A stretch of 64,000 nt of DNA from an uncultured Gammaproteobacteria bacterium (lineage in GTDB: Bacteria; Patescibacteriota; Microgenomatia; Levybacterales; UBA12049), in NCBI GenBank assembly GCA_964364105.1, contig CAYILI010000001.1, positions 14,465 to 78,464 of the forward strand, read 5' to 3'. The translations under genes were made by a program, and so were the position numbers. The notes under the pieces are model-generated. The model was not told where the DNA came from. It was given only the letters and a program-made list of their open reading frames with translations, and ran no database searches. This document shows positions 5,518 to 54,769 of this stretch, in pieces (positions within the stretch are counted from its first letter, which is position 1; each line of letters starts with the position of its first letter).

Positions 5518-5537
5518 AGTTTAATTATACAAATTAT

Positions 5538-8553: not shown

Positions 8554-8834
8554 CTAAGAGATGCGATTGGCTTAGCTTTTGTAAGGGCAAAATTTGACTT
8601 ACTGTCAACAAACCCAATTCTTGCAGCCTCAGAAGCTACGTGAGTTAAGGAGCTTAAAGAATAAATTTTTTCTCTTATGATTACATTTTCTGTTCTAACT
8701 TTAACCAATTCATCCTGAGTTTTTCCTAAAGCAACTCCTTTGGTAGAAATTTTATTAGAAATTGCAGTTCTAGTTATAAAAAGTCCTACAATTACTAATA
8801 TTAAAATGGCTAAAACAAATATTGGTTTTTTCAT
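8550..8834 (-). CDS. FtsL-like small bitopic division protein
   Basis: 94 aa with a single N-terminal TM helix and a charged C-terminal segment, in the conserved position between rsmH and ftsI. Confidence 0.4.
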   Translation of the reverse strand: MKKPIFVLAILILVIVGLFITRTAISNKISTKGVALGKTQDELVKVRTENVIIREKIYSLSSLTHVASEAARIGFVDSKSNFALTKAKPIASLR

Positions 8835-34668: not shown

Positions 34669-36519
34669 ATGAACAAAAAAACGTTATTATTATTCTTAAT
34701 ATTTGCATTTATCTTCTCCGTTCAATTTATCTTTAATCCTAATTTTTTTGTTAACAATGATCTTAACGGAAATATTGTACCACTTCTACACTTTAAACAA
34801 TCAATATTAACCTACCATCAATTTCCTTTATGGAACACTTATATTAATCAGGGGATTCCAAGTGTCGCTGATCCACTTTATGGAATTTATAATCCCCTTG
34901 TTAGCATTCCAATACTATTATTGCCTTATGAAATTGCAATTAAAATAATGTACCTGCTCGCAATATTTTTATCCTGCATTTCAATGTACATGCTTTTAAA
35001 GCTTTACAAAGTATCAAGCTTAGTTTCTTCTATCATAGCAATTACATACGCAAGCGGAACCTACATATCCTCAAGGATTAACGCTGGACATTTAGAAAAA
35101 ATAATTTCTTTCCCACTTCTTCCACTATTACTATTTAGCTTGATAAAATTAACTCAAGAAAAAAATATTTTGTGGTCAGGAATAACTGCAATTATCCTCT
35201 CTTTAATTCTCTTTAGTGGCGATATTTATAATGCACAATATTATCTTTATTCTATAGCTAGTATATTTTTATTATTCTTATTTAAAGATAGGAAAACATC
35301 TTTATACTTGATGCTCTCAGTTATTTTGTTTTTCCTATTTTCCTCGATAAAAATTCTTCCAATGCTGCAGTTACCAGATTATATTTCAAAAATAAAAGAA
35401 CCCTTTGTTGGAGGATTAAACTTAATAAGTCTAACATATAATTTATTCCTTCCAGTAGATCCTATATTTTTAAATTTATTTTCAACAAGCGACTATTCTA
35501 CTGGTTTTGGGTGGTGGGAAAGTCTTTCGTTTATTGGTCCTTTCTCTGCGCTTGGATTACTATACATTTTAAAATCATCTTTCTCTAAAATTGATACTGA
35601 AAAGTTAATTATAATCATATTATCAATTTTATTCCTACTTCTCTCTGCTCCTGATTCCTTACTCAATCCATATCACTATCTTATTAGTAATGTAGAAACA
35701 TTAAAGTTTTTTCATGTCCCAAGTAGAATCTTAGCTTTATGGGGAATGATTATTCTATTGTTTTTCGGTATTTTCCTTGATAAATTTAAAGATAAAAAGC
35801 TTGCAATTGCTATTTTATTAATAAACTTTTTGATAGTTTTTATTTACTCGCAAAATATTTTAAGAGAAAAACAATTTGTTAAAATTGACCAGGACTACAT
35901 TGCTCCATTGAATTGGATAGCAAGCAATAATAATGATAATTATCTTACTGTTCATGAATATGATCAAGGTAAAATCCCCCAAGATAAATTGTATTTAGCT
36001 AACATTCGTCCACTACTTTCAAATTATGGTTTTATTCTAAAAAATAGTCTGAGTGAAAAGTATAATTTCAAAGGAAATAATAAATATAACGATGTAAAGC
36101 CTGGTTTTGTGATTACGGATAAGATAAAAAATGATGCTAGTCTTAAAGAAATAAAGAAATTTAATAATAAAATTTATATATATAAAGACCTGAAAGCATT
36201 ACCATATGCTAGTATAGACGGAAAGCCACAGCAAGTATTTTTTTATCCAAATAAAATTTCCGTTATAGGGGACTCTGAAGAAAATAGTCGTCTTAAATTA
36301 TTGGAAAGTACATATCCCGGCTGGACAGTATTTATAGATGATAAAGAATCAAGAATTATTAGCGGGAGATTTTTGGAAGCTGAAACCCTCAAGGGAATTC
36401 ATAAATATGAATTTATTTATTTTTCAAAACTTTTTAATCTTGGTTTATTTGTCTCTAGTATTTCTATTCTTGTATGGGTATTCTATTTGATAAGAAAAAT
36501 AAAAATTAAACCACATTAA
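34669..36519 (+). CDS. Polytopic YfhO-like GT-C membrane protein (616 aa)
   Basis: Early YHQFPLWNTYINQGIPSVADP motif resembling the YfhO-family N-terminus, with multi-TM and a C-terminal soluble domain. One of only two plus-strand genes in the window. Confidence 0.4.
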   Translation: MNKKTLLLFLIFAFIFSVQFIFNPNFFVNNDLNGNIVPLLHFKQSILTYHQFPLWNTYINQGIPSVADPLYGIYNPLVSIPILLLPYEIAIKIMYLLAIFLSCISMYMLLKLYKVSSLVSSIIAITYASGTYISSRINAGHLEKIISFPLLPLLLFSLIKLTQEKNILWSGITAIILSLILFSGDIYNAQYYLYSIASIFLLFLFKDRKTSLYLMLSVILFFLFSSIKILPMLQLPDYISKIKEPFVGGLNLISLTYNLFLPVDPIFLNLFSTSDYSTGFGWWESLSFIGPFSALGLLYILKSSFSKIDTEKLIIIILSILFLLLSAPDSLLNPYHYLISNVETLKFFHVPSRILALWGMIILLFFGIFLDKFKDKKLAIAILLINFLIVFIYSQNILREKQFVKIDQDYIAPLNWIASNNNDNYLTVHEYDQGKIPQDKLYLANIRPLLSNYGFILKNSLSEKYNFKGNNKYNDVKPGFVITDKIKNDASLKEIKKFNNKIYIYKDLKALPYASIDGKPQQVFFYPNKISVIGDSEENSRLKLLESTYPGWTVFIDDKESRIISGRFLEAETLKGIHKYEFIYFSKLFNLGLFVSSISILVWVFYLIRKIKIKPH

Positions 36520-36525
36520 TAGGAT

Positions 36526-37239
36526 TTACTTTTTATTCTTTATAATAGCCGCATTGTAAGAAAAGAAGGAGCGAAGAAAAGTCATGCCACTTATTAATCT
36601 TTCGATTTTTATAACAAATTTATAAATTATCATTGGAAATCGAAATGGAGGATAGGCTTCGAAACTCATGTATTTACTATTGGGGAAATATTTGGAAATT
36701 AAATTTTTAAATTCTTTTTGAGTTAAATGATCATGTCCTCTTACTGTAGTCACGTAGAAATAAAATATAGGGTTATATCTATTACCCTCAAGTATTATAA
36801 TATCTCCTCCTGTTTTTGTTACTCTTAGAACCTCTTTTAGCATTCTATCCATATCCTTAAGATGATGCAAAACATCTTTTATGAAAACTCCATCAAACGT
36901 GCTATCTTTAAAGGGAAGTCTTCCGGTGCTTGTTTTTTTAAAAGAAACATTTTTAGTCTTTAAGGAATCCCATTCCTTATATTTAACAATATCAGTCCCA
37001 ATTACTGATTTTGCAAACTCACCGATGACCACAGAACCAGTTCCAAAACCACATCCTAAATCCAAAATCTTCTTATTAGAGAATAACTTTTTAACACCTA
37101 TGCGGTCGTTATAATCTTTGATAAATAGTTTACTTTCTTTTTCGAAGATATATTCATATTTATACTCCTTGCTTAATTTTCTTTTTCTCATCCTATTTTT
37201 TTTATTGATTTTACTTGCTCGTAAAGTAATTGTAAACAT
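36526..37239 (-). CDS. Class I SAM-dependent methyltransferase
   Basis: Motif I ILDLGCGFGTGSVVIG, then DIV and FDGVF motifs. Confidence 0.7.
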   Translation of the reverse strand: MFTITLRASKINKKNRMRKRKLSKEYKYEYIFEKESKLFIKDYNDRIGVKKLFSNKKILDLGCGFGTGSVVIGEFAKSVIGTDIVKYKEWDSLKTKNVSFKKTSTGRLPFKDSTFDGVFIKDVLHHLKDMDRMLKEVLRVTKTGGDIIILEGNRYNPIFYFYVTTVRGHDHLTQKEFKNLISKYFPNSKYMSFEAYPPFRFPMIIYKFVIKIERLISGMTFLRSFFSYNAAIIKNKK

Positions 37240-38252
37240 CCAAATATAAAAAGGGCGTAAACTAATTCATTAGCAATTTTCTGCACACTATTAAAACCAA
37301 ATGGAATTATAGCAATCCAAAAAATTACAATAATTAAACTTACTTTAAATGAAACAATACTCTTTAATTTGAAATAATAAACAAAACAAGTCCAGGAAAA
37401 TAAAACAATCATGAACTCATTTAGAATCAGATTTTTTGGCGAAATAATTATTAAAAGAATTATAAAAATATATATCTTTAAATATTTTCTTTTAAATGGC
37501 ACAACTATATGCTTTGCATTTATTGGAAAACGTTTAAAAAATAAGAATAAAATAAATGGCACAACTATATGCTTTGCATTTATTGGAAAACGTTTAAAAA
37601 ATAAGAATAAAATAGAATATAAAATCAGTGGAATAAGATAAATTGAAGATTTAATCAATAATTCTAAATCAGTAATTAACCCAAAAATCTTATTTGAAGC
37701 AAATTCTATTGTTTTTAACCCTCTTCCCATTATTTCAGATTTTGAATATTGATAACCTGTAATAAACACTAAAGGTGATTTTAATTTTATAGGATTATTA
37801 CTATCGCCTCTTGTAGAAGATAACTCAAACTGATAAATTTTATTTTTGGAATTAGAAATTACCGGAATTCCAAATGGAAAATGTGACTGGCTATCAAAAA
37901 GAAATGAGGAATATTCCATCTTGTAGTCCCAATCAATTCTACCTTTCTCTTTAAACTTAAAAATTAATATATCTTCGTTTCCAGCTTTTTGTCTCTTGTA
38001 ATCGTCGATGCTTATAATCAAAATTCCCAAGTTATTATCTTTTGCTTTAAACTCCCACTTGTAAGTCTTATTCTTAGATAAATTAAATTCATTATTACTA
38101 GAATTTACTAAATTTTTCGTTTGATAAGTTAATACAGAAAAGCTAACCCTATTCAACAATAAAACTGATGCAATAAGCCAGAATAATATTAATAAGGGAA
38201 ATATAACCAACGCTAAATTACTTAGAAAATTATTTTTTATCTTTATCTTCAT
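37188..38252 (-). CDS. Membrane protein, paralog A of 41745-42815. Contains a perfect 60-bp tandem duplication.
   Basis: N-terminal TM, an extracytoplasmic domain (LGILIISIDDYKRQKAGNEDILIFKFKE...FPFGIPVI) and a C-terminal multi-TM region. Homologous along its length to 41745-42815. Confidence 0.4.
   Translation of the reverse strand: MKIKIKNNFLSNLALVIFPLLILFWLIASVLLLNRVSFSVLTYQTKNLVNSSNNEFNLSKNKTYKWEFKAKDNNLGILIISIDDYKRQKAGNEDILIFKFKEKGRIDWDYKMEYSSFLFDSQSHFPFGIPVISNSKNKIYQFELSSTRGDSNNPIKLKSPLVFITGYQYSKSEIMGRGLKTIEFASNKIFGLITDLELLIKSSIYLIPLILYSILFLFFKRFPINAKHIVVPFILFLFFKRFPINAKHIVVPFKRKYLKIYIFIILLIIISPKNLILNEFMIVLFSWTCFVYYFKLKSIVSFKVSLIIVIFWIAIIPFGFNSVQKIANELVYALFIFGCLQLLYEQVKSIKKIG
37495..37614. 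repeat. Perfect 2 x 60-bp tandem duplication inside a CDS (in frame, duplicating 20 aa: LFLFFKRFPINAKHIVVPFI)
   Basis: aatggcacaactatatgctttgcatttattggaaaacgtttaaaaaataagaataaaata occurs twice consecutively with 100% identity. Confidence 0.9.
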
Positions 38253-40600
38253 TTTCTCTTACTTAAGATGATAGCAATTAAAATCAAAAATACAATTATG
38301 GTTATCGTTATTCCTATATAAAAATAAACTTGAGATTTATAATAAAGGACTAATTCTAAATCAATTGAACCATCTTCATTAATTTCATAATAATCTTTAC
38401 TTAAGTTATTTATTATCCAATCAAAATCAATTGTCCATTTGTTTGAAAAATTATTATTCACAACATGAGAGGACCTAAATAAATCTTTTGACCAAAGATA
38501 ATTTAGATCTCCTAATTCAAAAAATATTATTTCCGGGGCGCATTCGACAGTTTTAAGATTGTCTAATCTCCTGGGACTATTGCATGTAAAATTATTAGTT
38601 AGATGACTTGGATAAAGTTCCCATTGCTCATGAAATGAATCATTAAATAAAATTTCTTGATCTTGTTTAATATTTTCGATTCTTATTTTGTATTTGACCC
38701 TATTTAATTTTTTATATGTTGTGTTATGAGACGTGATTATAAAATTTTGTCTTTTTGTACTATAAAGTTCATAATTGCCCTCTGAACTCGAAATAATTTT
38801 CTCATTAGTAATATTTGAAATAAATTTGCTATCTTGAGCACTAATCGCATCTGGTAAATATAAAACTGATTTTTTTATTTCTTCTGGGATATTTTTCGTT
38901 AATAATACGTAATTTATATTATCTATAAACAAAACATTATTTAACGTATTGTAATCTCTATTAATTATTGAATTTTCTACTATCTTAGCTTGTGGAGAAA
39001 AATTAAATGAAAGATTGCCGGATATATCGTTTACGCCACTAAAAATTACCACAGGAGATACTCCAGCATATACATTATCTGAATCTACATCCTTAATAAT
39101 TGTATATAAAGCAATTCCATATGGAATACTAAGTATATTATTCGTCGAAGGAACAGTTTCTTTAATATCAGTCATAAAATCTAAATACTCGTCAGGAATA
39201 GTAATATTTTTATATATGTTTTCAGATGCAGCATACAAAGGTGAGATTATTATTTTCTTAATCGGAAGAATATTTACAACAATTGTCACTAAAAAAAGAA
39301 AATATACAACTAAGACTAGTTTATTTTTCGATTTATACTTCCGTCTAAATATAACAAGAGAACATGTAATTAAAAGTGAATAAATCAGCACATATCCCAT
39401 TGCAAATTTATCCACAGGAATTCTAAACATAACAAATCCAGGAATATGACCGAAAAGAATATATAAATTAAGAAGTGGTCCAATGTTTACCGTAAAAAAA
39501 TAAATTGAGAGAGAAAAAGCAATTAGAATAATGATAAATATTTTTTTCTCCCAAATGTTGGTATATTTTTTGAAATTAAAAATTCCTAAGAAAACAATTA
39601 CAGGATAAAGCAAATTTATAAAATAAGTTTTATCATAAAAGGATTCATATATATTCTTTAAATTCCATCCGAAATCAAAAGCAATTTGTCTAGGATAAAG
39701 GTTTAATAATGGGTAGATAATACTCCCCCTTGAAGTTGCAAGTACAGATCGCGAGAAATCCTCAGCCATGCTCTCAGATAATACTTTTGCAGTAAAATTA
39801 CTCGAGCTTGGAACTATGAGATTCATCAAGAAAACAAATAACCAAAAAGACTGAGATAGTAAAATAATTGAAAAAAATAGAATAAATCTTTTTATAAATA
39901 AATAAATATTTTGTTTTTTAAATAAACATGAACTTATAATTAGCGATATAGATATAGGTAAAATAAATCCCATAGCCCATGGAGAATTATGAGCTCCGAA
40001 AGAAAAAACTGTGACAAGAATTGCTGCTTTAAAAATATTGCTAATTCTTCCCGATTTAACAAATCTTAAAAAATAATAACAAACTGCGGGAATTAAACCT
40101 ATCAACCAAATCGGTATTAAAGGATTAACAAAATGATTATTAATTAAAATCGGAGAAAATATATAGAAAAGTGAGCCTAAGATTGCCTCAGATTTATATT
40201 TATAAGAATCAATAATAATTAATTCTTTTACAAATAATTGAAAATAGACAAGCCCGAAGATAAAAGGAAGTGAAAAAGAAAAATACCCCAAGACTATTTT
40301 TGATTTAATTATTTCTGCTAGAATGGTCCAGATGAAAACAAATGGAATGAATGATTGATATGAAAAATTCCACCCCACAGATGATAAATTAATCCAAGAA
40401 AAAAACTGTGTATTTATTAAATACTCTTTTGGATATACATAAAATAATCTTGTGTCGTCTCCCCCCAAAGAAATCTTTCCCTCAAACAAAAAATAAGGAA
40501 ACAATAATAAGAAAATGACAACTATTACATTTAAACTTTGGGAATAGTGATTTTTAAAAAATACGAATAAATTATTTATAATATGATTAATTCTTGTCAT
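38249..40600 (-). CDS. Large polytopic GT-C-like membrane protein (783 aa), paralog A of 42808-45078
   Basis: LFEGKISLGGDDTRLFYVYP motif shared with the paralog (LFDGRLFLGGDDTRFYYYYP). More than 12 TM helices plus a C-terminal soluble domain and a terminal TM. Confidence 0.45.
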   Translation of the reverse strand: MTRINHIINNLFVFFKNHYSQSLNVIVVIFLLLFPYFLFEGKISLGGDDTRLFYVYPKEYLINTQFFSWINLSSVGWNFSYQSFIPFVFIWTILAEIIKSKIVLGYFSFSLPFIFGLVYFQLFVKELIIIDSYKYKSEAILGSLFYIFSPILINNHFVNPLIPIWLIGLIPAVCYYFLRFVKSGRISNIFKAAILVTVFSFGAHNSPWAMGFILPISISLIISSCLFKKQNIYLFIKRFILFFSIILLSQSFWLFVFLMNLIVPSSSNFTAKVLSESMAEDFSRSVLATSRGSIIYPLLNLYPRQIAFDFGWNLKNIYESFYDKTYFINLLYPVIVFLGIFNFKKYTNIWEKKIFIIILIAFSLSIYFFTVNIGPLLNLYILFGHIPGFVMFRIPVDKFAMGYVLIYSLLITCSLVIFRRKYKSKNKLVLVVYFLFLVTIVVNILPIKKIIISPLYAASENIYKNITIPDEYLDFMTDIKETVPSTNNILSIPYGIALYTIIKDVDSDNVYAGVSPVVIFSGVNDISGNLSFNFSPQAKIVENSIINRDYNTLNNVLFIDNINYVLLTKNIPEEIKKSVLYLPDAISAQDSKFISNITNEKIISSSEGNYELYSTKRQNFIITSHNTTYKKLNRVKYKIRIENIKQDQEILFNDSFHEQWELYPSHLTNNFTCNSPRRLDNLKTVECAPEIIFFELGDLNYLWSKDLFRSSHVVNNNFSNKWTIDFDWIINNLSKDYYEINEDGSIDLELVLYYKSQVYFYIGITITIIVFLILIAIILSKRK

Positions 40601-41744: not shown

Positions 41745-42815
41745 TTATTTCTTTCTTTTATTTTTTTTAAATTCTAACAAATCCTGAAATAAGCCAATTA
41801 ATAAAATCATGTATCCAAATGCTGACACATCATCAACAAATAGGCTCCAATTAAAATATGTAGCAATTACTGATATACAAATTATCACAAGCGCCAATAA
41901 ATAAGTTATCTTTGAACTAAATTTATTTATATATACTGCTATAATCCATAACCCTAATAAACCTAGTGTTAATCCAGTTGTAATTATATCAATGGCAAAT
42001 AAATAAACTAATATCAGCGTTAAACACAATAAAGCGTAAGAATATTTTTTCTTGCTCAAGAATTGCTCTTTCAATCGTTTAATGACCCCAGAAACAAGCT
42101 TATTTTTTTTTATAAAACTAGATAATGTATTTTCCTGAACAAAAATAATATATACAATGTAAAAAATAAAAGGCAATAAAAAGAACGAACTGTCAAGCAA
42201 ATAATCTTTATTTGTAAAAATCGCTATGATCTTGCTGATAGTAAAGTCGACGAATTCATTTTTTTCTTTTAAAATTTCTCCTTTGCTGAATTTGTATTTG
42301 GTTGTGAATTTTAAATTCGAACCATGTATTTGTATAGCATTAGATGGATCTCCATTTAGTGAAGAGATTTCAAACACATAACTTTTATCTTTAGAATCTT
42401 CAATTATTCCAAATCCAAAAGGAAAATACGAATCAGGCTTCATTTGTCCTGATCTATACTTATTTGTATAAAGCCACTCATCCATACCCTCTTCTTTAAT
42501 CCTAAATATCAAAATATCCTCTTGCTTATAGTCAACCCTTGTTACATCCTCGATCTTAACTGTTACTATTCCTAAATTGTTTTTCTTTGCTAAAAATTTA
42601 CCACTAATTTTCTCATTTTTTAAAATTTTACCATCAATAGGATTCTTTGCAATTTCTTGGCTATGTAAATACTCTAATACAGAGGGACTCTCATACGATC
42701 CGTTAATTAGAGATGGGAAGAACCATAAAAACAATAGAAGAAATGGAATAAGTATCCACTTAACTAGCTTAAACGATATAATTACTTTAAATGATTTTGA
42801 AAGATTTTTATGCAT
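41745..42815 (-). CDS. Membrane protein, paralog B of 37188-38252
   Basis: LGIVTVKIEDVTRVDYKQEDILIFRIKEEG...FPFGFGII, collinear with the paralog A partner. Confidence 0.4.
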   Translation of the reverse strand: MHKNLSKSFKVIISFKLVKWILIPFLLLFLWFFPSLINGSYESPSVLEYLHSQEIAKNPIDGKILKNEKISGKFLAKKNNLGIVTVKIEDVTRVDYKQEDILIFRIKEEGMDEWLYTNKYRSGQMKPDSYFPFGFGIIEDSKDKSYVFEISSLNGDPSNAIQIHGSNLKFTTKYKFSKGEILKEKNEFVDFTISKIIAIFTNKDYLLDSSFFLLPFIFYIVYIIFVQENTLSSFIKKNKLVSGVIKRLKEQFLSKKKYSYALLCLTLILVYLFAIDIITTGLTLGLLGLWIIAVYINKFSSKITYLLALVIICISVIATYFNWSLFVDDVSAFGYMILLIGLFQDLLEFKKNKRKK

Positions 42816-45078
42816 TTTTATTTTTCTTAATCTTTTTGATTAAAACAAATGTAAAAATTAGAAAAAACACAGATAGCATCACCCCTAAATAAAAGTATAC
42901 CTGAGGAAGAAAATATAATGTTAAAACAATGTCAATATCTCCATTCTTATTTTCTACAAAATAAGAATTTTGTAATTTACTTTTAACTTCATCTTCACTT
43001 ATTATCCATTCATTACCATATACTTTAATCGGCCTATGAGACTCATCAAATATTGGCTTCTTAAATAGATATAAAATATCACCAATATTGCTAGACATTG
43101 TGTTTTCGTAAGTTTTATCCCCTGAAAAAATCTTCCATCCTGAATTGTAAGTTTCATGAAAGTATAGAAATTCTTGTTGATTTAAATTTTTTATTGTGAC
43201 TTTATATTTAACTGGACTTATCTTTTCATATGATACATTTCCTGTTGAATCGATAACCTCTGGAGAGTTCTTTAATTTATATATTACATATTTTCCTGAA
43301 TCACTTTGAACTAACTCCCGGTCTGAGATTGACCTGATTAATTCATCATCTTGAAATTTCAAATAATCATGATCAAATAAATACGATTTCTTGACTTCCT
43401 TAGGAATGTTTTTTGTCACCATGACATAACCTACATTAACTTGTTCGAGAACATTTAAAAGCTTGTTGTAGTCTCTTTTCGTCACTGATTCAACAACTAA
43501 ATTAGAGATGCTGCTAGGATACGAGGCGGTTCCGCTCAGGTCATTCACGCCTGTTAAAAATTTGAATGGGGATGTTCCTACATATGCATTTTTCCCATTT
43601 TCTTCTGTTATTATTGCGTAAGATGCAATATTTTGCGGAAATCCAATCACATTCTCAGTCTTAGGTAACTTGTTACCTGTTTCTCTTGCAAAAGATAAAT
43701 ATTCATCAGGAAAATGAACAGTTTGATAAATATTGTTAGTTCTCCAAACTGGCCTATTAATTACTTGTTTTACGGGAATAAAATTAATTATAACCACTAA
43801 AATAACTAAAGCTAAAAAAAGAGAATAAAATCTGAAAAATTTCTTTATTACAAATAAACATTGTGTCAGGAAAATTGCGTAAATAAAAATGTAACCTAAT
43901 GAAAATTTATCAATAAAATTTCTAAATACAGAAAACCCTGGGATGTTACCAAGAAATAAAAAAATGTTTTTCAGTACTCCTACATTAATAGTAAAGAAAT
44001 AAAGTGCTGCTAAAAATGCTATAAAGAAAAATATAAACTTATTTTTCTCATCCTTCTTTAATACTTGTTTGTATTTAACTAGCCCCAAGAACAAAACTAC
44101 AACAAAAACTAAGCTGAGAGGCAGAACATAATCATAATAATTAAGAAAGACATTTTTTAATTGACCATCGAAATCAAACAAAATCTGTCTATGATAAAAA
44201 GTTAAGAGAGGATTAATGATATTTCCAGTTGCAATAGAAAGAACTGTGGGCGCAAAGCTATCAACAATTTCCTTAGAAACCGGCCTTACGCCAAGACCAC
44301 CATCACCTACATTTCTTAAAGACATCACGAATGGGAATAACCAAAATAATTGACTAGAGAAAATAGAAAAAATAAAAATTGAAGTCTTTCTTGCTCTGTT
44401 TTTAAGTGGATTTTTAATAAAAACGAGGAAAATAATAAAAGCACTCAATAAAGGTAATAATAATCCTGCTATCCATACAACCGCATAAAATGCTAATGAA
44501 AGAAATATGCACCAGAGCACAACTTTAAAAACATCTTGGGTCTCACCTCTATGAAGGAAGCATAAGTAATAGTAGAAAATGATCGGCACCAAACATACTA
44601 ACCAAACAGGGCTTAAAAAATAAGCAAGATGACTTGCGGCAATTATAGGCGAGAATATATAAAACACAGCCCCTACTATGGAAATTAAATATTCCTTACC
44701 AATAATCTCTCTAACCAATTTTTGGAAATAAATAAAACCTAAAACCAAAACCATTGAAAATGATGAATAAGAAAGTATGATTTTTGAATTTAATAAATTA
44801 TCAAAAAACGCAGAAGCAAGTAAAAAGGGGATGTACTGATGATTTGGAATATATAGCGGAAGCGATGAGATATTATTCCAGGAAAATAAGGACAAACTTT
44901 TTAACAAGGCTGATGGATAATAATAATAAAATCTAGTGTCGTCCCCTCCCAAAAAAAGCCTACCGTCGAACAAATAATAAGGAAGATATATTAGATATCC
45001 AACAATAATTGAATTTATTATTACAATTGCTACAAAGTAAGCTTTTTTACTATTAAATAAGTTAAGATTAAACCCCAT
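42808..45078 (-). CDS. Large polytopic GT-C-like membrane protein (756 aa), paralog B
   Basis: GGDDTRFYYYYP motif and global collinearity with 38249-40600. Confidence 0.45.
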   Translation of the reverse strand: MGFNLNLFNSKKAYFVAIVIINSIIVGYLIYLPYYLFDGRLFLGGDDTRFYYYYPSALLKSLSLFSWNNISSLPLYIPNHQYIPFLLASAFFDNLLNSKIILSYSSFSMVLVLGFIYFQKLVREIIGKEYLISIVGAVFYIFSPIIAASHLAYFLSPVWLVCLVPIIFYYYLCFLHRGETQDVFKVVLWCIFLSLAFYAVVWIAGLLLPLLSAFIIFLVFIKNPLKNRARKTSIFIFSIFSSQLFWLFPFVMSLRNVGDGGLGVRPVSKEIVDSFAPTVLSIATGNIINPLLTFYHRQILFDFDGQLKNVFLNYYDYVLPLSLVFVVVLFLGLVKYKQVLKKDEKNKFIFFFIAFLAALYFFTINVGVLKNIFLFLGNIPGFSVFRNFIDKFSLGYIFIYAIFLTQCLFVIKKFFRFYSLFLALVILVVIINFIPVKQVINRPVWRTNNIYQTVHFPDEYLSFARETGNKLPKTENVIGFPQNIASYAIITEENGKNAYVGTSPFKFLTGVNDLSGTASYPSSISNLVVESVTKRDYNKLLNVLEQVNVGYVMVTKNIPKEVKKSYLFDHDYLKFQDDELIRSISDRELVQSDSGKYVIYKLKNSPEVIDSTGNVSYEKISPVKYKVTIKNLNQQEFLYFHETYNSGWKIFSGDKTYENTMSSNIGDILYLFKKPIFDESHRPIKVYGNEWIISEDEVKSKLQNSYFVENKNGDIDIVLTLYFLPQVYFYLGVMLSVFFLIFTFVLIKKIKKNKNA

Positions 45079-45113: not shown

Positions 45114-45719
45114 TTAGATTTGCTTTATTACTTTTGCCGGGTTTCCAACTGCAATTGAATTGCTTGGTATATTCTTCGTAACTATCGAACCTGCACCAAT
45201 TACTACTCTATCTCCTATTACTACGCCTGGCAATACCACAGAGTGCGTACCAATCCACACATCTTCTCCGATTGACACTGGACTAGTTTCATATCCTTGC
45301 TTATCGATAGGAAGAGATTTATTTTGAAATTTATGATTAAAATCAGTAACAAAACAAAAAGCAGCAATCTTAGTATTTCTACCGATTGAAATAGATTCGT
45401 GAGCCATTATAAAAGTATTATCATCAATTAATGAATTTTCCCCTATAAATATTTTTCCGTTATCCCCGCAGGTTATCCTTGTCTCTTTACCAAGTATCGT
45501 ATGATTTGAAATTTCAACAGCGTGTTTAGTGCTTTGAAAAAAATGATTATGCCCTCTTAAAACCACAGACTTACTTATTTTGTAACCCCTAATATTCAGA
45601 AAGAAAATCTTAATCAAGGAACAAATATGAAGCAAAATATGCTTAATGATCTGAACCGTTGTTTCAGCAGATCCTCTTTTTTTAAATGATTTTAAAATTA
45701 AATTAAGATTTTTCAACAT
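45114..45719 (-). CDS. Hexapeptide-repeat acetyltransferase (maltose/galactoside O-acetyltransferase-like)
   Basis: IGENSLIDDNTFIMAHESISIGRNTKIAAFCFV...VWIGTHSVVLPGVVIGDRVVIGAGSIV. Confidence 0.75.
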   Translation of the reverse strand: MLKNLNLILKSFKKRGSAETTVQIIKHILLHICSLIKIFFLNIRGYKISKSVVLRGHNHFFQSTKHAVEISNHTILGKETRITCGDNGKIFIGENSLIDDNTFIMAHESISIGRNTKIAAFCFVTDFNHKFQNKSLPIDKQGYETSPVSIGEDVWIGTHSVVLPGVVIGDRVVIGAGSIVTKNIPSNSIAVGNPAKVIKQI

Positions 45720-45728
45720 ACTTACTAT

Positions 45729-47003
45729 TTATTTTCTCTTATTCATTTGTCTAAAGGCACCTGCAAATGAATTTTCCCATGTATTATGCTTTGCAAATTC
45801 CATAGCATTTTTTCTAAGCCTCAAGTAAAGTTTTTTATCTGAGAATATATTCATAACAGCATCTGCAAAACTTTTCGGATCATCATGCACCCTCAAGGCA
45901 GCTCCTCTATCTGCCGCATCAATACCCAATGGTGGAACTTGTGAACTAACAATAGAAATTCCAGCCGCCGCATATACACGAATTTTACCAGCATCCGCAT
46001 AATATCTCAGAGACCCAGGTATATCCCTATAAGGAGCTAATCCTACAGTACAATTTTTAATTAGATCAGACATATCTGAACTCTTTTCAACAAAACCATG
46101 CACATAAACAGACTCTTTAAGTCCTTTTTTTTGAACAATTTTCCTAAGCCATTCAAAATCTTGCTCTGTGCCACCTATCATATGCAATTTAGCATCTGGG
46201 AATTTTTTTAACACCAAATCCAGTGCTAAAATTGCTACATCAGGACCATTCTCGCGTCCTAAAGTTCCCATATATACCATTGAATGATTTTCAATTTTCG
46301 AGACGGGATTTGCCTTAATTTGATCTGGATACAAACCATTCGGTACGTGTATGACTGATGCAGATTTATTTGAATTAAGACCAACACTTATTCTTGCTGG
46401 TTGCATTGCCTTAGAAACATCCCAAATGTAATCAGCGTGCATCGCACAAAAACGATCCAGCAAAAGATATACAGTATTAAACCATTTACTTGGGTATCTA
46501 TTTGGGGAATAATCTGAAACGTAATAAACTACAACTTTAACACGCCGAATTTTTCTCAAAAAAATAGCAGCCAGCGTATTTATACTTTCGAGACATATAC
46601 AATAATCAAATGAAGTCTTATCTCTTAATGACCAATCAATTACTGAGAGGAAATCTCTAATTTTAAATATTGGCTGAGTAGTACTCTTATTAAACTTATT
46701 AAGGAGTGGCTTCAGTAAATATAAAATTTTAGAACTTTTATAAGATTTAAAGTTCTTATTATTCCTAGAATAGACTTCTATCTTAGGCATGACTTCATCG
46801 CTTCCCGGATGAGCCTGATCAATAAGGACAAACTTCTTTACTCGTGGTACAAGAAAATCTCTCATAGGCTCAATACTTCCATTAGTGGGCATACGACTAC
46901 CATTAATCCATTTGGAGAAGCTAACAAAAAGAACGGTTTTATCTTCTAATAATTCACCAATCTCTTTTTTAGCCATTTTTAAGTTTTTTTCTAGCTTCGG
47001 CAA
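45729..47003 (-). CDS. GT-B glycosyltransferase (GT4/GT1-like)
   Basis: C-terminal Rossmann half with HMIGGTEQDFEWLRKIV...HGFVE pattern. Confidence 0.5.
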   Translation of the reverse strand: MPKLEKNLKMAKKEIGELLEDKTVLFVSFSKWINGSRMPTNGSIEPMRDFLVPRVKKFVLIDQAHPGSDEVMPKIEVYSRNNKNFKSYKSSKILYLLKPLLNKFNKSTTQPIFKIRDFLSVIDWSLRDKTSFDYCICLESINTLAAIFLRKIRRVKVVVYYVSDYSPNRYPSKWFNTVYLLLDRFCAMHADYIWDVSKAMQPARISVGLNSNKSASVIHVPNGLYPDQIKANPVSKIENHSMVYMGTLGRENGPDVAILALDLVLKKFPDAKLHMIGGTEQDFEWLRKIVQKKGLKESVYVHGFVEKSSDMSDLIKNCTVGLAPYRDIPGSLRYYADAGKIRVYAAAGISIVSSQVPPLGIDAADRGAALRVHDDPKSFADAVMNIFSDKKLYLRLRKNAMEFAKHNTWENSFAGAFRQMNKRK

Positions 47004-47781
47004 TCATCTGCTCTAACCCTTCCTCCAACGACACCTGAGGCAACCAACCAGGTATCCTTCCCATATTATCTGAGGGGAGCGGATCTCTTCCTTTAAGTTT
47101 TCCGGGGTAGCACTTAGCTCCTGTCATTTTAGATATCATTGTAGCTATATCGATTATCCTTACCCATTCATAACTGCTTGCATCATATACAGTTTTTCTT
47201 AAATTATTTGAATTTAAAGCCAAATAAAACGCGCTACTCAGATCATTTATATGGGTGAACTGCCTCCACTCTTCACCATTTGTCATCATTTCTATCTTTT
47301 TTGTTTTAAGTGCCTGATATATAAAGTCTGATATAACATGACTTTTTACACTCTCTTCCTCCATAACTCCATACGCATTCCAAACCCTCACGCATTTTCC
47401 TCCCAACTGATCCGTCCATACTTCACCTAGTCTTTTGGTAACTCCATAAACAGTATCCACCTCTTCTGATAACTGACTTGAAATAAACAGAAAATCTTTC
47501 TTTCCATGAAGCTGATCAAATACATTCCTCATGAGGTCCAAATTCCATTTAAGCTGTGACATCTGTCGATTTGGGTCATATAAATATTTTGATCCCCCTA
47601 CATCCCATGCTAAAAAATATATTTTGTCTACTTCATTAAAACTGAATTTATAAGTTCTCCCGTCCTCGTTTTTACTTCTTTTAATATCGAAACGTATTAC
47701 TTTTTCTCCTTTGTCTTCAAGAAATTTTGAGAATGGTTTTCCAATAAAACCCTCAGATCCAATAACTAAATTTTTTGTCAT
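46969..47781 (-). CDS. Short NAD(P)-dependent epimerase/reductase (SDR superfamily, 270 aa)
   Basis: N-terminal VIGSEGFIGKPF Rossmann motif. YGVTK (YxxxK). Confidence 0.5.
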   Translation of the reverse strand: MTKNLVIGSEGFIGKPFSKFLEDKGEKVIRFDIKRSKNEDGRTYKFSFNEVDKIYFLAWDVGGSKYLYDPNRQMSQLKWNLDLMRNVFDQLHGKKDFLFISSQLSEEVDTVYGVTKRLGEVWTDQLGGKCVRVWNAYGVMEEESVKSHVISDFIYQALKTKKIEMMTNGEEWRQFTHINDLSSAFYLALNSNNLRKTVYDASSYEWVRIIDIATMISKMTGAKCYPGKLKGRDPLPSDNMGRIPGWLPQVSLEEGLEQMIAEARKKLKNG

Positions 47782-47795
47782 AATTTCAATTAGTT

Positions 47796-48788
47796 TTACT
47801 TCTTGGACTTATCAACTTGCTCAAGAATCCACGAATAAGTCTTAGTTAAACCATCTACTAGCGGAGCATCTGGAGCCCAACCTAACTTCTTTTTAATCAA
47901 TTTATTATCTGATTTTCTTCCTCTAACGCCAAGAGGACCAGGGATATGTTTTATTTTCACTTTTTTCCCAGCAATCTTCATCACCATTCCTGCTAATTCA
48001 TTAAGGGTTACCATCTCTTCTGATCCAATATTAACGGGGCCTGTAAAGTCACTATCCATCAGCCTTCTAACTCCTTTTAAGCATTCATCTATATACAAAA
48101 ATGTTCTTGTTTGCTTTCCATCTCCCCACATATCTATCACTCCACCTTCTTTTGTTTCAGCTACCTTCCTACACATCGCTGCTGGAGCTTTTTCTTTGCC
48201 ACCCTTCCATGTACCCTCTGGACCGAATATATTATGGAACCTAGCAATTCTTACTTCTAATCCATAGTTTCTATAGTACGAAAGATATAATCTTTCTGAG
48301 AATAACTTCTCCCAACCATATTCGCTGTCTGGTGCCGCTGGATACGCTGATTCTTCTGATAATTTTGGATTTTTAGGATCTAGCTGATTATAAGCTGGGT
48401 AAATACAGGCTGAGGAAGAATAGAATATTTTTTTTGATTTCGTCTCTAAGGCTTTTTGCAAAACGTTTAAATTAATCAGAGCAGAATTTGTCATTATGTT
48501 TGCGTCATTTTCACCTGTAAAAATATATCCAGCTCCTCCCATATCTGCTGCAAGCTGATAGATCTCATCATATTTTCGATCAAAGATCTTTTTGACTACC
48601 TTTTGATCCGTTAAATTTCCGATAACGAATTTTTCCGCTTCTGTTTTACTATATTCAGGCTTCTTAAGATCAACGCCAACTACGAAAAATCCTTCTTTTT
48701 TTAATTTCTTAACTAAGTGGCTACCTATAAATCCACCAGCTCCACAAACCAGTGCTGTTTTATTTAATTTCTTTACTTCTCTATTCAT
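47796..48788 (-). CDS. GDP-mannose 3,5-epimerase-like NAD-dependent epimerase (GME family)
   Basis: CGAGGFIGSHL Rossmann motif. The blocks LAADMGGAGYI, SSSACIYP, RFHNIFGPEGTWKGGKEKAPAAMCRK, MWGDGKQTRTFLYIDEC, HIPGPLGVRGRKSDN and KLGWAP match my recollection of GDP-mannose 3,5-epimerase block by block. Confidence 0.6.
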   Translation of the reverse strand: MNREVKKLNKTALVCGAGGFIGSHLVKKLKKEGFFVVGVDLKKPEYSKTEAEKFVIGNLTDQKVVKKIFDRKYDEIYQLAADMGGAGYIFTGENDANIMTNSALINLNVLQKALETKSKKIFYSSSACIYPAYNQLDPKNPKLSEESAYPAAPDSEYGWEKLFSERLYLSYYRNYGLEVRIARFHNIFGPEGTWKGGKEKAPAAMCRKVAETKEGGVIDMWGDGKQTRTFLYIDECLKGVRRLMDSDFTGPVNIGSEEMVTLNELAGMVMKIAGKKVKIKHIPGPLGVRGRKSDNKLIKKKLGWAPDAPLVDGLTKTYSWILEQVDKSKK

Positions 48789-48870: not shown

Positions 48871-49734
48871 TCAGTTCAAATTAATATTTTTATATAAAAA
48901 ATCTCCCAGTGGCAGTCTCCCTTGACTCACATCAGCATAGTTCCTGAATCCAACTAGCTGAAAATTATAACTCTGACTATACAGCATTGAATTTATTTCA
49001 CTAAAAGTATAGTTTTTATTTCCTTCAATCGTAATTTCGATTAATAAATATCTTGTCTTCATTAAGGTTTTCTTTGCACCTTTCAAAACCTGCTTTTCAA
49101 ACGATTCAACATCAATTTTCAAAATATCTATAATTGAAAACTTTGATACTAATAAATCCAGCGGCAAAACCTTCACCCTCTCAACGATAAGTTTTCCACT
49201 TTTTTTGCCTCGTGTTAAACCCCTCAATGAGCTTATAGCTGAGGATTGCGTATCAATTGTAAGCCTAGCAAATCCACTCCGGTCAGAAGCTGCTTTTTTG
49301 ACTAAAAAAACATTTTTATCTTTATTAAGGTTCATAAACAATGCCTTATAAGTCTGCTCTGCGGGTTCGACTGCGATAATCTTGCATCTTGGGAATAGCT
49401 CTCTCATCAGTAAAGAGAAAAATCCAACATTCGCTCCCACATCAACAACATATTTTACATTACGAATATTTGCTATCTTAATTAAATTATTGTGCCTTGT
49501 TAAAATGCTTTGATATCCGCTAATACCAAGATGAGAATCGTAATAAATATCTTTGCCAAAAAGTGAAACAAAACTTTCGCCTAATCTGAAATTCTTCAGC
49601 CTCAAAATATATTTTAATATCTCTATATATTTCTTAATTAAAAACGTAAATTTCCATTTATATGACCAGGAACATACTTTTAAGAAAATTAAATCTAAAA
49701 TAATGGATTTCTTAACAAACCAATAGAAACTCAT
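48871..49734 (-). CDS. FkbM-family methyltransferase
   Basis: VVDVGANVGFFSLLM...KIIAVEPAEQTYKAL. Confidence 0.7.
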   Translation of the reverse strand: MSFYWFVKKSIILDLIFLKVCSWSYKWKFTFLIKKYIEILKYILRLKNFRLGESFVSLFGKDIYYDSHLGISGYQSILTRHNNLIKIANIRNVKYVVDVGANVGFFSLLMRELFPRCKIIAVEPAEQTYKALFMNLNKDKNVFLVKKAASDRSGFARLTIDTQSSAISSLRGLTRGKKSGKLIVERVKVLPLDLLVSKFSIIDILKIDVESFEKQVLKGAKKTLMKTRYLLIEITIEGNKNYTFSEINSMLYSQSYNFQLVGFRNYADVSQGRLPLGDFLYKNINLN

Positions 49735-49737
49735 CCC

Positions 49738-50904
49738 TTATTTCCTCCTTGAATACTCGATGGAAATTCTTTCAAAAGTTTTATTTAGAATTTTTTCTAT
49801 ATCTCTCTCTGATGCAAGCTCTAATGCATTAGCTCTAAGCTCTAAGTATAATTTTTTATTTTCTACTATTTTTTTAATTGCTGATATAAGTTCTTTTTCA
49901 TTGGCTTTTATATTAATCCCAGCATGGCTTTCAACTATATCATCTGCTGTCCCATTGTCCCCCGAAATTATAACTGGTAATCCCAAAGCTAAATAATCTC
50001 TTGCCTTCATTGAATCCATATAATATTCCCCGGAGTAGCTGTTAACATAGAACGCTAAACCAATTCCATGACTTGCTATTATTTTGAAAAGCTCATCATG
50101 TGACATTGATCCAAGGAATAAAATATTTTTTTGTAATTTTTTTTTCTTAACTAAAGCTTTTATTTTTTTTTCCATCAACGGCAAACAAACAAATGTTAAT
50201 CTTATTCGCGGAATGTCCTTTATTAATATCTCCATAGCATTTAGGAGCATGATAAATTCACTAACTGATTTTCTAGCTGATACCACAATTAGCTTATTGG
50301 GATTACCTGACTTTAAAACTAATTTTTTTGTACGTGAAATTGCCGGAGAATTTGGAATCCAAACTAATTTTTCACTTGGAATCCCATCTCTTCTTCTAAT
50401 ATCCAATATGCGTTTGGAAACAGCTAAAATTATGTCTGAGTTTTTATTTGTTAGCTTATCTAAAAAATGATAAAAAATATTTAATAAATAATTAGGGTAT
50501 CTCGTCTTTGTATAGTCAGGATTAAAGGTGATAAAAATACGCACCTTATTCATTTTTTTTAATATAAGTCCCCAAAATGCATTCAAAGGATCTTCACCTA
50601 TATAAACTATCTCTGACTTCTTGAAAAACATAAAGACCGCTGTAAATGTTATCCATCCCTCTAAAAGTCTTATTCCCAATTCTCCAAAATAGGGCTTATG
50701 CTCAATAATTTTTTCAATTCTGTTTATCCCATCAAAAAAAGTAATAAATGTAATTCCTTCATTGTAGATAGAGTGTCTTATGAATAAATAAGGCTGTTTT
50801 TCTCTTTCTAAATGGTACGCGAGGGAGTGTCCTGGACCGGGATTATCAGTTTTATTTTTTCCAATCGCCGTATGCGATACTACACAATAATTAATTTTCT
50901 TCAT
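49738..50904 (-). CDS. GT-B glycosyltransferase (GT4-like)
   Basis: Two-Rossmann architecture with a C-terminal E...LGLPVIISGDNGTADDIV motif. Confidence 0.5.
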   Translation of the reverse strand: MKKINYCVVSHTAIGKNKTDNPGPGHSLAYHLEREKQPYLFIRHSIYNEGITFITFFDGINRIEKIIEHKPYFGELGIRLLEGWITFTAVFMFFKKSEIVYIGEDPLNAFWGLILKKMNKVRIFITFNPDYTKTRYPNYLLNIFYHFLDKLTNKNSDIILAVSKRILDIRRRDGIPSEKLVWIPNSPAISRTKKLVLKSGNPNKLIVVSARKSVSEFIMLLNAMEILIKDIPRIRLTFVCLPLMEKKIKALVKKKKLQKNILFLGSMSHDELFKIIASHGIGLAFYVNSYSGEYYMDSMKARDYLALGLPVIISGDNGTADDIVESHAGINIKANEKELISAIKKIVENKKLYLELRANALELASERDIEKILNKTFERISIEYSRRK

Positions 50905-51802
50905 TTTTCATCAATCTTAAGCCATCTTTAACAGAAACAGGATCCACATCTAAAAGCCTCTTTATTTTTGTTATGTTAAGATATGTGTTCTTAGGTCTAG
51001 GTGTAATGTTTGGAAAATAATCACTTGAAACAGGGACCAACAATTCACTTCTAAATCCAAACACTGATGATAATTTTTTTGCAAATTCATAACGACTAAT
51101 ACATTCTGATCCTGCGACATTATATATACTTTTATTTTCTAATTTATTTTTTTTATTCAATAAAATCTCCCATATAATTTTCGCTGCATCATTTGCATAG
51201 ATAAAATTATTATAAATATCATCAACTACCTTAATTTCTCTTTCTTTTCTTAGCTCTTCTATCATCCATGTTGCAAGATTAGATCTTTCATATTTATTAT
51301 TCCAACCATACATCGTCATTAATCGTATAATTGAGTAAACATTAAGCCCGTTTTTTACCAACTCTTCAGCTTCCAATTTTGTCTTACCGTAATATCCCAC
51401 CGGAGATGGTTTGCTTTTTTCAGAAAATGGATGTCCGATCCCATTAAATACTGCGTTTGATGAAATATATAGGATTGATGAGTTTATCTTCTTAGCTTCA
51501 TCTATAATATTTTTTGTTCCTCCTACATTAATCTTCCATGCTTCTTTTTTATGAGACTCACAATAATCTACATTTCCCATTGAGGCTGCATGAACAATTA
51601 AATCTGGTTTATATTCGCGAAATATTTTTTTTACATCTCTCTTTTTCGTAATATCTAGTTGGATATATTTTATGTTTTTATTTTTTAATTGGTCTTTTTT
51701 ATTATTTAAAAATGTAGCAAAAACAAACTGGTCTTCAGGTATTTCTTTTAAGAAATATTTTCCCAGTAAACCTTTTCCGCCTGTAAAAAGAATTTTTTTC
51801 AT
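50891..51802 (-). CDS. SDR-family sugar-nucleotide 4-reductase (RmlD-like)
   Basis: KKILFTGGKGLLGKYF, LDITK, HAAS and YGKTK (YxxxK). Length and order are RmlD-like. Confidence 0.55.
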   Translation of the reverse strand: MKKILFTGGKGLLGKYFLKEIPEDQFVFATFLNNKKDQLKNKNIKYIQLDITKKRDVKKIFREYKPDLIVHAASMGNVDYCESHKKEAWKINVGGTKNIIDEAKKINSSILYISSNAVFNGIGHPFSEKSKPSPVGYYGKTKLEAEELVKNGLNVYSIIRLMTMYGWNNKYERSNLATWMIEELRKEREIKVVDDIYNNFIYANDAAKIIWEILLNKKNKLENKSIYNVAGSECISRYEFAKKLSSVFGFRSELLVPVSSDYFPNITPRPKNTYLNITKIKRLLDVDPVSVKDGLRLMKNEEN

Positions 51803-53512: not shown

Positions 53513-54769
53513 TCATGACAGTATACGAATTATCTTATTAATTTCTCTCTTAGTTAACTCAGGATTGTTTCCAACGTAGAACCCTTGATCATGCGCGATT
53601 CCTGAATTCTTATTATTAAGATGCGTTTTAATATATTTCCTAAAGAAAGGTTGTCTTGTTAAATCACCACCCACGATTGGCCTAGTTTCAATTACGCTTT
53701 CACATTTTCCCAATAACTCATCTCTTATCTTGCTTGACTTACAAATTATAGGAATAGCAAAATTAGATACAAAATCTATGTGATCATATTTAAGTGGAAA
53801 ATAATTTTTATTGTTATAAATAGCTTTCGCAATGGTTAGGAAATTACAATTTCTTTTTTTATTAATCTCATCAATATATTTTATTCCGATATTACCCACG
53901 AAACCATTTATCTCAGTTGGCCTTAAATTGAATCCTAAATCATAAAATGTGTATCTTGAGTAAAAAGTTGAATTAACTTTAAATTTTTTCCTAATCTGAT
54001 CTTGTTTTGCAAAATTAAGATTTCTATCCCATCCATGCGCTCTAACCATAGAAAGCATATTCATTAGCTCTTCGTCATCAGTGCTGATAACTCCCCCTTC
54101 AATTGTTGAAAGGTGATGCCCAACATAAAAAGAGCATGTACTTGCTAAACCAAAATTACCGAGTTTTCTACCTTTATAAACTGTCCCTAAAGATTCACAA
54201 TTATCTTCAATAAGTATTATTTTGTTTTTTTTGCAAATCTTTTGAATATTTTCCAAATCACTACAAAACCCTAGCGCATTTGTAACAAACAGTGCTTTTA
54301 ACTTTTTTTTATTAATTATTGCGCCAAGCTTTTGACTCGAAATGTTTAGTGTCTCAATTTCAATATCAATAGGGACGGGGTTTAAACCTAGCTGGATTAA
54401 TGGCATAACATTTGTACTCCAAGATAGAGCAGAAAATCCCACACTATCTCCTTTTCTTAGTCTTTTTAAATTTAAAAGGGATTGAATCAGTGCTAAATTT
54501 GCGGAACTTCCACTATTTACAAATACACAATACTTTCGCTCTTGATATTTTGCAAAATTTTTTTCAAACTTCTCACACTCAACTCCAAAGCTTAATTTTT
54601 TTGATCTTTTTATGAATTTTTGCAGATCATTTTTTACATTCTCTTCCCTATAGAATGTCGACTTAATTAACGGAATCATATAATTTTCTAAACCTAAAGA
54701 AACTATATCGAATTCATGGCAGAAGTGAACCTGATATTGCCTTACTATTCTTAATCTATATATTAACAC
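53513..54769 (-). CDS. DegT/DnrJ/EryC1/StrS-family PLP/PMP enzyme with His in the Schiff-base Lys position. Likely a sugar 3-dehydratase (ColD/E1-like). The real start is probably the MIPLIKS Met near 54679.
   Basis: The motif SFYVGHHLSTIEGG aligns to the family consensus SFHxxKxxxxGEGG. H replaces K at the PLP-binding position, which is the known hallmark of ColD-type and E1-type 3-dehydratases. Confidence 0.65.
   Translation of the reverse strand: MLIYRLRIVRQYQVHFCHEFDIVSLGLENYMIPLIKSTFYREENVKNDLQKFIKRSKKLSFGVECEKFEKNFAKYQERKYCVFVNSGSSANLALIQSLLNLKRLRKGDSVGFSALSWSTNVMPLIQLGLNPVPIDIEIETLNISSQKLGAIINKKKLKALFVTNALGFCSDLENIQKICKKNKIILIEDNCESLGTVYKGRKLGNFGLASTCSFYVGHHLSTIEGGVISTDDEELMNMLSMVRAHGWDRNLNFAKQDQIRKKFKVNSTFYSRYTFYDLGFNLRPTEINGFVGNIGIKYIDEINKKRNCNFLTIAKAIYNNKNYFPLKYDHIDFVSNFAIPIICKSSKIRDELLGKCESVIETRPIVGGDLTRQPFFRKYIKTHLNNKNSGIAHDQGFYVGNNPELTKREINKIIRILS

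Follow-up and report, generated by a model that had tools for sequence, protein, structure and literature searches.

A putative GDP-mannose 3,5-epimerase gene in a patescibacterial glycan region

The DNA analysed here ("the window") is a 64,000-nucleotide stretch of contig CAYILI010000001.1 (assembly GCA_964364105.1), and the gene in question is a minus-strand open reading frame (ORF) that encodes a 330-residue homologue of GDP-mannose 3,5-epimerase (GM35E or GME; Table 1), the plus strand being full of stops at this position in an ORF scan. The leftmost 13 kb of the window hold a dcw cluster (Mur ligases, a penicillin-binding protein, and RsmH) with an aminoacyl-tRNA synthetase and RecO, and the remainder, from ~13.5 kb to the end, is a single large cell-surface glycan region of ~50 kb, in which the GME gene sits within a minus-strand run of glycosyltransferase (GT), methyltransferase, and acetyltransferase genes. 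The host is a groundwater bacterium of the Patescibacteria (Candidate Phyla Radiation, CPR), Microgenomates/Levybacteria-like: the named relatives of the window's RsmH come from Candidatus Levybacteria, Microgenomates, and Patescibacteria, and the exact 330-residue protein is also present in ENA assemblies made from 0.1-µm filter fractions of Hainich groundwater.

Table 1. Coordinates and features of the window genes referred to in the text (TM, transmembrane segment; SDR, short-chain dehydrogenase/reductase)
Gene or product	Position	Strand	Size and context	Basis or family match
GDP-mannose 3,5-epimerase (GM35E/GME) homologue	47796..48788	-	330 aa, ATG start	ORF, PDB phmmer, residues, tree, fold
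SDR270, uncharacterised extended-SDR nucleotide-sugar enzyme	46969..47781	-	270 aa; 14 nt downstream of GME	
GT4-type glycosyltransferase	45729..46976	-	415 aa from ATG 46976; 424 aa from TTG 47003	Glycos_transf_1
Hexapeptide-repeat O-acetyltransferase, WbbJ/WcaF-like	45114..45719	-		Pfam Hexapep; NCBIfam WbbJ 120 bits, below cutoff
Polytopic membrane protein	42808..45078	-	756 aa; ~11 N-terminal TM + 1 C-terminal TM	no Pfam family
Membrane protein	41745..42815		~355 aa	
Large membrane protein	38249..40600	-		no Pfam match
Membrane protein	37188..38252		~355 aa	
Large membrane protein	34669..36519	+		no Pfam match
Large membrane protein	32588..34630	-		no Pfam match
FkbM-family methyltransferase	48871..49734	-	82 nt upstream of GME	Pfam Methyltransf_21, TIGR01444
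RmlD-like reductase	50891..51802	-		TIGR01214, 182 bits, below cutoff
RfbH-like DegT-family enzyme	53513..54769	-		NF011936, 233 bits, below cutoff
Membrane-protein ORF	23764..26997	-	1077 aa; ~21 TM-like segments	no Pfam family
ManC, monofunctional mannose-1-phosphate guanylyltransferase	16250..17323	-	357 aa, GMP domain only	Pfam NTP_transferase + ManC beta-helix
RsmH	8831..9721			

The six GME motifs quoted in an initial annotation of this DNA, which had proposed a GME-like gene, were all located in the protein. Three are exact (LAADMGGAG, residues 79–87; SSSACIYP, 124–131; KLGWAP, 301–306), and three carry one to three conservative substitutions relative to the quoted plant consensus: RFHNIFGPEGTWKGGKEKAPAAMCRK (183–208) differs at three positions, MWGDGKQTRTF (220–230) at one, and HIPGPLGVRGRKSDN (281–295) at two. 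The homology search against characterised GMEs that had been suggested as a check, run with phmmer on all PDB sequences, returned Arabidopsis thaliana GME (AtGME; 2c59) as the top match (E = 2e-100, 340 bits, query residues 13–329), and the five best matches are all GMEs (Arabidopsis 2c59, 2c54, 2c5a, and 2c5e, and Myrciaria 8sg0 at 1e-97; range 1e-97 to 2e-100). The next classes are UDP-xylose synthase (UXS; 3e-30, 109 bits), UDP-Glc 4-epimerase (3e-26), and the GDP-fucose synthase Fcl (1e-20, 78 bits), GME and the following class lying 70 orders of magnitude apart in E value. As judged from the sequence, the resemblance to GME is far beyond chance. Library models, in contrast, are generic: the Pfam matches are to Epimerase (1.5e-41) and GDP_Man_Dehyd only, and a search of Pfam and NCBIfam for a GME-specific model yielded none, only generic SDR matches. 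We based the assignment on the PDB sequences, the family-defining residues, the phylogeny, and the predicted fold.

Active site, predicted fold, and placement against related enzymes

A review of the GM35E family (PMC8787198) gives S143, C145, Y174, K178, N203, K217, R243, and R306 (Arabidopsis numbering) as its defining residues, which set it apart from GMER/Fcl and GalE, with S143, Y174, and K178 as the catalytic triad, C145 and K217 acting as an acid-base pair, R306 acidifying the cysteine, and R243 binding the diphosphate; GDP-fucose synthases (GMER/Fcl) carry His and Lys at the positions of K217 and R306 (PMC8787198). Alignment of the window protein to AtGME places all eight, as S126, C128, Y157, K161, N186, K200, R228, and R291, and each is invariant among relatives in a 29-sequence alignment. 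S126, Y157, and K161 form the [ST]xnYxxxK triad, and C128 pairs with K200, in whose column Escherichia coli Fcl has His. The Cys-acidifying arginine lies in GVRGR291KSDN, at a column occupied by Lys in Fcl, whereas R228 and N186 correspond to the diphosphate-binding Arg (At R243) and the "orange-wall" Asn (At N203). The NAD+ glycine motif GxxGxxG is present as G16-A-G-G19-F-I-G22.

An AlphaFold2 (AF2) model of the protein (pLDDT 81.5) was compared with known structures using Foldseek, in which ranks 1–14 are GME structures only (E = 5e-36 to 8e-32, TM-scores of 0.82–0.85); the first non-GME match is a UDP-Glc 4-epimerase at 6e-24. In a neighbour-joining tree with 100 bootstraps, for which reference Fcl, Gmd, and GalE sequences were taken from the annotated E. 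coli K-12 genome, the window protein forms one clade with six bacterial homologues and AtGME in 100/100 replicates, with Fcl as the sister group. The window protein is 51–52% identical to AtGME, compared with 25.5% for Fcl, 21% for Gmd, and 19% for GalE.

The generic Pfam matches, and Fcl as the top-scoring NCBIfam model (NF047922), might raise the suspicion that the gene is really a GDP-fucose synthase, a UDP-hexose 4-epimerase, or a GDP-mannose dehydratase given the wrong name. The 119 bits of the Fcl model are, however, far under the cutoff of 500, and the window protein has Lys200 and Arg291 in place of the His and Lys of Fcl. The scores for TIGR01179 (73 bits versus a cutoff of 262) and TIGR01472 (24 bits versus 415) are likewise below cutoff, Gmd has its dehydratase residues Thr and Glu at the positions of S126 and C128, and Pfam and NCBIfam scans of the window proteins revealed no Gmd that might feed an Fcl. 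Together with the identities and the fully supported GME clade, these results led us to reject an Fcl, Gmd, or GalE identity, and we regard any such misassignment as vanishingly improbable. The proposals of the initial annotation that the gene is GME-like and that it is not Gmd or Fcl thus stand, and the phylogeny showed no grouping with UDP-sugar 4-epimerases or Fcl. Membership of the GME family is borne out by every test that could be applied, the activity itself being predicted; with high probability the gene product is a genuine bacterial GDP-mannose 3,5-epimerase, belonging to the extended SDRs and binding NAD+ tightly.

A conserved gene module links GME to a second SDR enzyme

The initial annotation overlooked the gene directly downstream of GME, which encodes SDR270. 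Database searches gave no characterised relative of SDR270, which belongs to a well-populated and highly conserved family (895 database matches); in the window and in loci L083–L089, L102, L103, L003, and L021 it sits nearly always right downstream of a GME. It has a GxxGxxG motif, a YxxxK motif, a diphosphate Arg, and an invariant Asp32 at the end of β2, which we take to indicate an NAD-type enzyme. The invariant His of its "SHVI" motif falls in the same column as GME K200 and the catalytic His of Fcl, and SDR270 lacks the ~20-residue Ser-to-Tyr loop that bears the catalytic Cys.

Gene order was examined in 80 GME-anchored loci, taken from the best 80 of at least 480 GTDB species genomes (77 of them informative for SDR270), and in SDR270-anchored metagenome loci with at least 62% identity and enough upstream DNA (n = 7). 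GME lies directly upstream of SDR270, at a distance of 7–24 nt, in 7/7 of the SDR270-anchored loci, and the pairing recurs in loci L003, L021, L102, and L103. For ~18 of the 26 closest GME matches (contigs of at least 6 kb) the longest contig is the same size as that of an SDR270 match, which is a proxy only for co-location. SDR270 is missing from 68 of the 77 informative GME-anchored loci, so the GME-SDR270 pair marks a sub-clade. On the SDR270-containing contig L103, GME is broken into a pair of ORFs of 92 and 230 residues (5053–6023), either as a frameshifted pseudogene or through an assembly error.

The conserved order continues with the GT4, the O-acetyltransferase, and the 756-residue membrane protein. 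The start of the GT4 gene overlaps the end of SDR270, and copies 54–70% identical occupy the same position in six loci (L083, L085, L086, L087, L088, and L102); the gene call for the module GT4 in L001 is 415 residues. The O-acetyltransferase, which is 29% identical to E. coli WcaF, has copies 57–58% identical in L083, L087, and L088, and the 756-residue protein has copies 53–58% identical in L087 and L088, followed in the module by a 356-residue membrane protein (44%). We consider the GT4 a candidate L-hexose transferase. Its assignment as a fucosyltransferase was rejected, as it shows similarity to neither WcaI nor WcaE of E. coli, and the donor sugar therefore cannot be read from the GT. 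We found no description of the GME-SDR270-GT4-acetyltransferase module in the searchable literature, and a search for literature on CPR GMEs or on a GME partner SDR likewise yielded nothing.

The close and recurrent pairing raises the question of whether GME and SDR270 constitute an obligate two-enzyme system, with an end GDP-L-hexose, or a ratio of epimers, different from that of stand-alone GMEs. SDR270 might, for example, epimerise GDP-linked L-galactose (GDP-L-Gal) or L-gulose (GDP-L-Gul) at C3, C4, or C2, or push the mixture to one epimer, with GT4 transferring the product. The invariable position of GME upstream of SDR270 in the SDR270-anchored loci and in the four further loci, the proxy co-location among the closest GMEs, and the overlap of the GT start with the SDR270 end all favour such a system, as does the question posed in the GM35E review of whether single 3- or 5-epimerases exist (PMC8787198). 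A comparison of specificity-determining positions between SDR270-paired and unpaired GMEs revealed differences in Lys enrichment only, consistent with AT-rich genomes, and none in the active site. Altered chemistry in the paired GMEs was rejected on this ground, and the window GME looks canonical. We regard an obligate two-enzyme system as a real possibility that falls short of being probable. Slightly more tentative is the specific proposal that the GMEs of the sub-clade, mostly from Patescibacteria and groundwater bacteria, are functionally coupled to SDR270 acting as a GDP-L-hexose mono-epimerase (3-, 4-, or 5-). If so, GME and SDR270 would make a GDP-L-hexose new as a bacterial glycan precursor, which the GT4 and the O-acetyltransferase would install on the CPR surface.

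The surrounding glycan region

The glycan region contains genes for DUF4012, an initiating sugar transferase, ManC, more than 12 glycosyltransferases, PMT_2/YfhO-type membrane proteins, methyltransferases, acetyltransferases, an RmlD-like reductase, an RfbH/DegT-like enzyme, and a flippase. The initial annotation had placed GME next to ManC, which proved incorrect: the only ManC-like gene of the window is ~30.5 kb from GME, with some 25 genes between, in the same minus-strand glycan region. This ManC matches positions 3–347 of the 467 in TIGR01479, the bifunctional model, with 225 bits, is 31% identical to E. coli CpsB, and probably supplies GME with its substrate, GDP-mannose.

The FkbM-family methyltransferase upstream of GME has no counterpart in the 80 GME-anchored loci. 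No tRNAs were found in the window, and a scan of 41–56 kb for promoters and terminators was uninformative on operon boundaries (76 promoter-like sites versus 75 in shuffled sequence, and 5 terminator-like sites versus 5.9). The RmlD-like and RfbH-like genes share an operon; RmlA, RmlB, RmlC, and CDP-glucose pathway genes are absent from the window, which points to a second deoxy- or amino-sugar branch.

The 756-residue protein is one of four large and similar membrane proteins (616–783 residues), which have ~8–11 N-terminal TM-like segments and one C-terminal TM; two of the four are each followed by a membrane protein of ~355 residues. The GC content across 34–44 kb falls to 26–29%. The four may represent a repeated GT-C/polymerase-like module or may be horizontally acquired. 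The region also holds the 1077-residue ORF.

Distribution and genomic neighbours of bacterial GMEs

Bacterial GMEs had been described in the initial annotation as uncommon, a view that the database searches contradict. At least 8000 database proteins match at E ≤ 1e-20, the best 120 of which are 72–97% identical to the window protein, with many named "GDP-D-mannose 3',5'-epimerase" by JGI. The GTDB species-representative genomes encoding a GME relative, of which the best 80 are 65–75% identical, span many phyla; these 80 include Patescibacteria lineages, Bacteroidota, Planctomycetota, Gamma-, Alpha-, and Deltaproteobacteria, Acidobacteria, Nitrospinae, Ignavibacteria, Chloroflexi, Verrucomicrobium sp. 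3C, Emticicia agri, and a Nanoarchaeia metagenome-assembled genome. One bacterial member, MfGM35E, has been characterised (PMC6678494). The family is nonetheless under-annotated, with no specific model in Pfam or NCBIfam and with entries mostly named "NAD-dependent epimerase/dehydratase".

GME is 65–75% identical across very distant phyla, whereas the housekeeping RsmH of the window is ~65% identical to its named Levybacteria relatives. As far as sequence comparison goes, this contrast points to unusually strong conservation of GME, frequent horizontal transfer, or both.

Fucosyltransferase-like genes recur beside GME. GT11 (α-1,2-fucosyltransferase-like) genes flank it in 10/80 loci (e.g. L008 4383–5273), and WcaI-like GT4 genes do so in 15/80 (e.g. 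L025 6671–7966), a representative matching E. coli WcaI at 1.9e-18. L-galactose is 6-hydroxy-L-fucose, and for this reason such neighbours would fit a GDP-L-Gal donor, that is, fucosyltransferase-like enzymes predicted to use GDP-L-galactose. A further neighbour of this kind lies on the SDR270-containing contig L103 (10402–11193).

In 19/80 genomes an SDR of ~339 residues lies within 6 kb of GME (e.g. L063 11777–12796), which its motifs suggest to be CDP-tyvelose/paratose 2-epimerase-like (TyvE-like). It is not present in this window; elsewhere its role might be to turn GDP-glucose into GDP-mannose and back, or to alter GME products.

Comparison with characterised systems and a proposed pathway

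With AtGME (2C59, 2C54, 2C5A, 2C5E) the window protein shares 52% identity over 310 aligned residues, the extended-SDR fold (TM-score of 0.84), and an identical catalytic set (Ser/Tyr/Lys, Cys-Lys, and the equivalents of Arg306, Arg243, and Asn203). It differs from the plant enzyme in lacking a ~20-residue N-terminal extension and ~30 C-terminal residues, in having GxxGxxG rather than GxxGxxA, and in its predicted role, namely glycan building in a CPR bacterium as opposed to ascorbate and cell-wall synthesis. MfGM35E (UniProt I0K0X9) from Methylacidiphilum fumariolicum is the sole biochemically characterised bacterial GME (PMC6678494). By its published description it resembles the window protein in being bacterial, in being ~50% identical to AtGME, in its conserved residues, and in adjoining a glycosyltransferase and a methyltransferase; a surface glycan/lipopolysaccharide role has been hypothesised (PMC6678494). 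Its host, in contrast, is a thermoacidophilic Verrucomicrobium, and no SDR270-type partner is described (PMC6678494).

GMER/Fcl/WcaG, the sister clade, also 3,5-epimerises a GDP-sugar with a Cys acid in an SxC motif, but differs, beyond its His base and Lys, in needing a 4-keto-6-deoxy substrate from Gmd and in carrying out a net reduction with NADPH. The BlmG/MtdM-type enzymes (bleomycin, A201A) are bacterial GME homologues, discussed in the MfGM35E paper (PMC6678494), that provide a glycosyltransferase with L-gulose or L-galactose, as predicted for the system considered here; the identity of BlmG to AtGME is 42%. By description they belong to actinomycete secondary-metabolite clusters, in contrast to the cell-envelope glycan locus of the window.

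Reasoning from the enzymes of Arabidopsis and Methylacidiphilum, we infer the substrate and products of the window GME, and extend the scheme to the role of SDR270, the coupling of the two enzymes, and the acceptor glycan. ManC would make GDP-mannose for GME, which, with its bound NAD+, would use Tyr157, Lys161, and Ser126 to oxidise C4 of GDP-α-D-mannose. The Cys128/Lys200 acid-base pair would then invert C5 and C3 via enolate intermediates, with Arg291 lowering the pKa of the Cys, before GME re-reduces the 4-keto group. The predicted output is an equilibrium mixture of GDP-Man, GDP-β-L-galactose, and some GDP-β-L-gulose. This unfavourable equilibrium would be drawn onward by the co-transcribed SDR270, which may act on the GDP-L-hexose in turn, and by GT4 transfer, after which the O-acetyltransferase would act.

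A GME-fold enzyme of other specificity has also to be considered, such as a single C3- or C5-epimerase (a GDP-D-altrose or GDP-L-gulose synthase) or one acting on another GDP-hexose or a GDP-heptose. Sequence does not reveal the product profile, SDRs related to GME carry out one epimerisation or two (PMC8787198), and BlmG-type homologues have been proposed to give L-gulose specifically. Against this, the acid/base pair is conserved, as are the Arg that tunes the pKa and the Arg that binds the diphosphate, the substrate-contacting blocks are nearly identical to those of AtGME, and at 52% the window protein is as close to AtGME as is MfGM35E (50.5%), which yields the canonical product mix. We consider such a change of specificity unlikely.

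Several points weigh against assigning canonical GME activity and products to the window protein. That GDP-D-mannose is converted to GDP-L-galactose (along with GDP-L-gulose) has been demonstrated for the plant enzymes and MfGM35E only, and we found no report of L-galactose or L-gulose in CPR glycans in the literature. The protein reaches none of the NCBIfam cutoffs, its best model being that for Fcl; NCBIfam has no GME equivalog model, so there was no curated cutoff of its own for it to pass. Two loops of the AF2 model beside the active site (~residues 83–92 and 129–134) are of low confidence. The product ratio and the incorporated sugar are not readable from sequence, and the conserved SDR270 partner suggests that the pathway may end in something other than L-Gal or L-Gul; the final sugar may be a further-modified L-hexose.

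The GME itself is of little weight, as one more member of a large and recognised bacterial family, of whose bacterial enzymes a single one has been assayed; family, mechanism, and occurrence in bacteria are already established, and for GME the CPR lineage alone is new. The GME-SDR270-GT4-acetyltransferase module, in contrast, is a lead to a possibly new GDP-L-hexose reaction, a question raised in the GM35E field (PMC8787198), and SDR270 offers a tractable way to look for a new nucleotide-sugar reaction, which might be of use in making rare L-sugars by biocatalysis. For the organism, the locus indicates that a CPR bacterium with a reduced genome spends ~50 kb on a surface-glycan region, probably one that includes L-hexoses.
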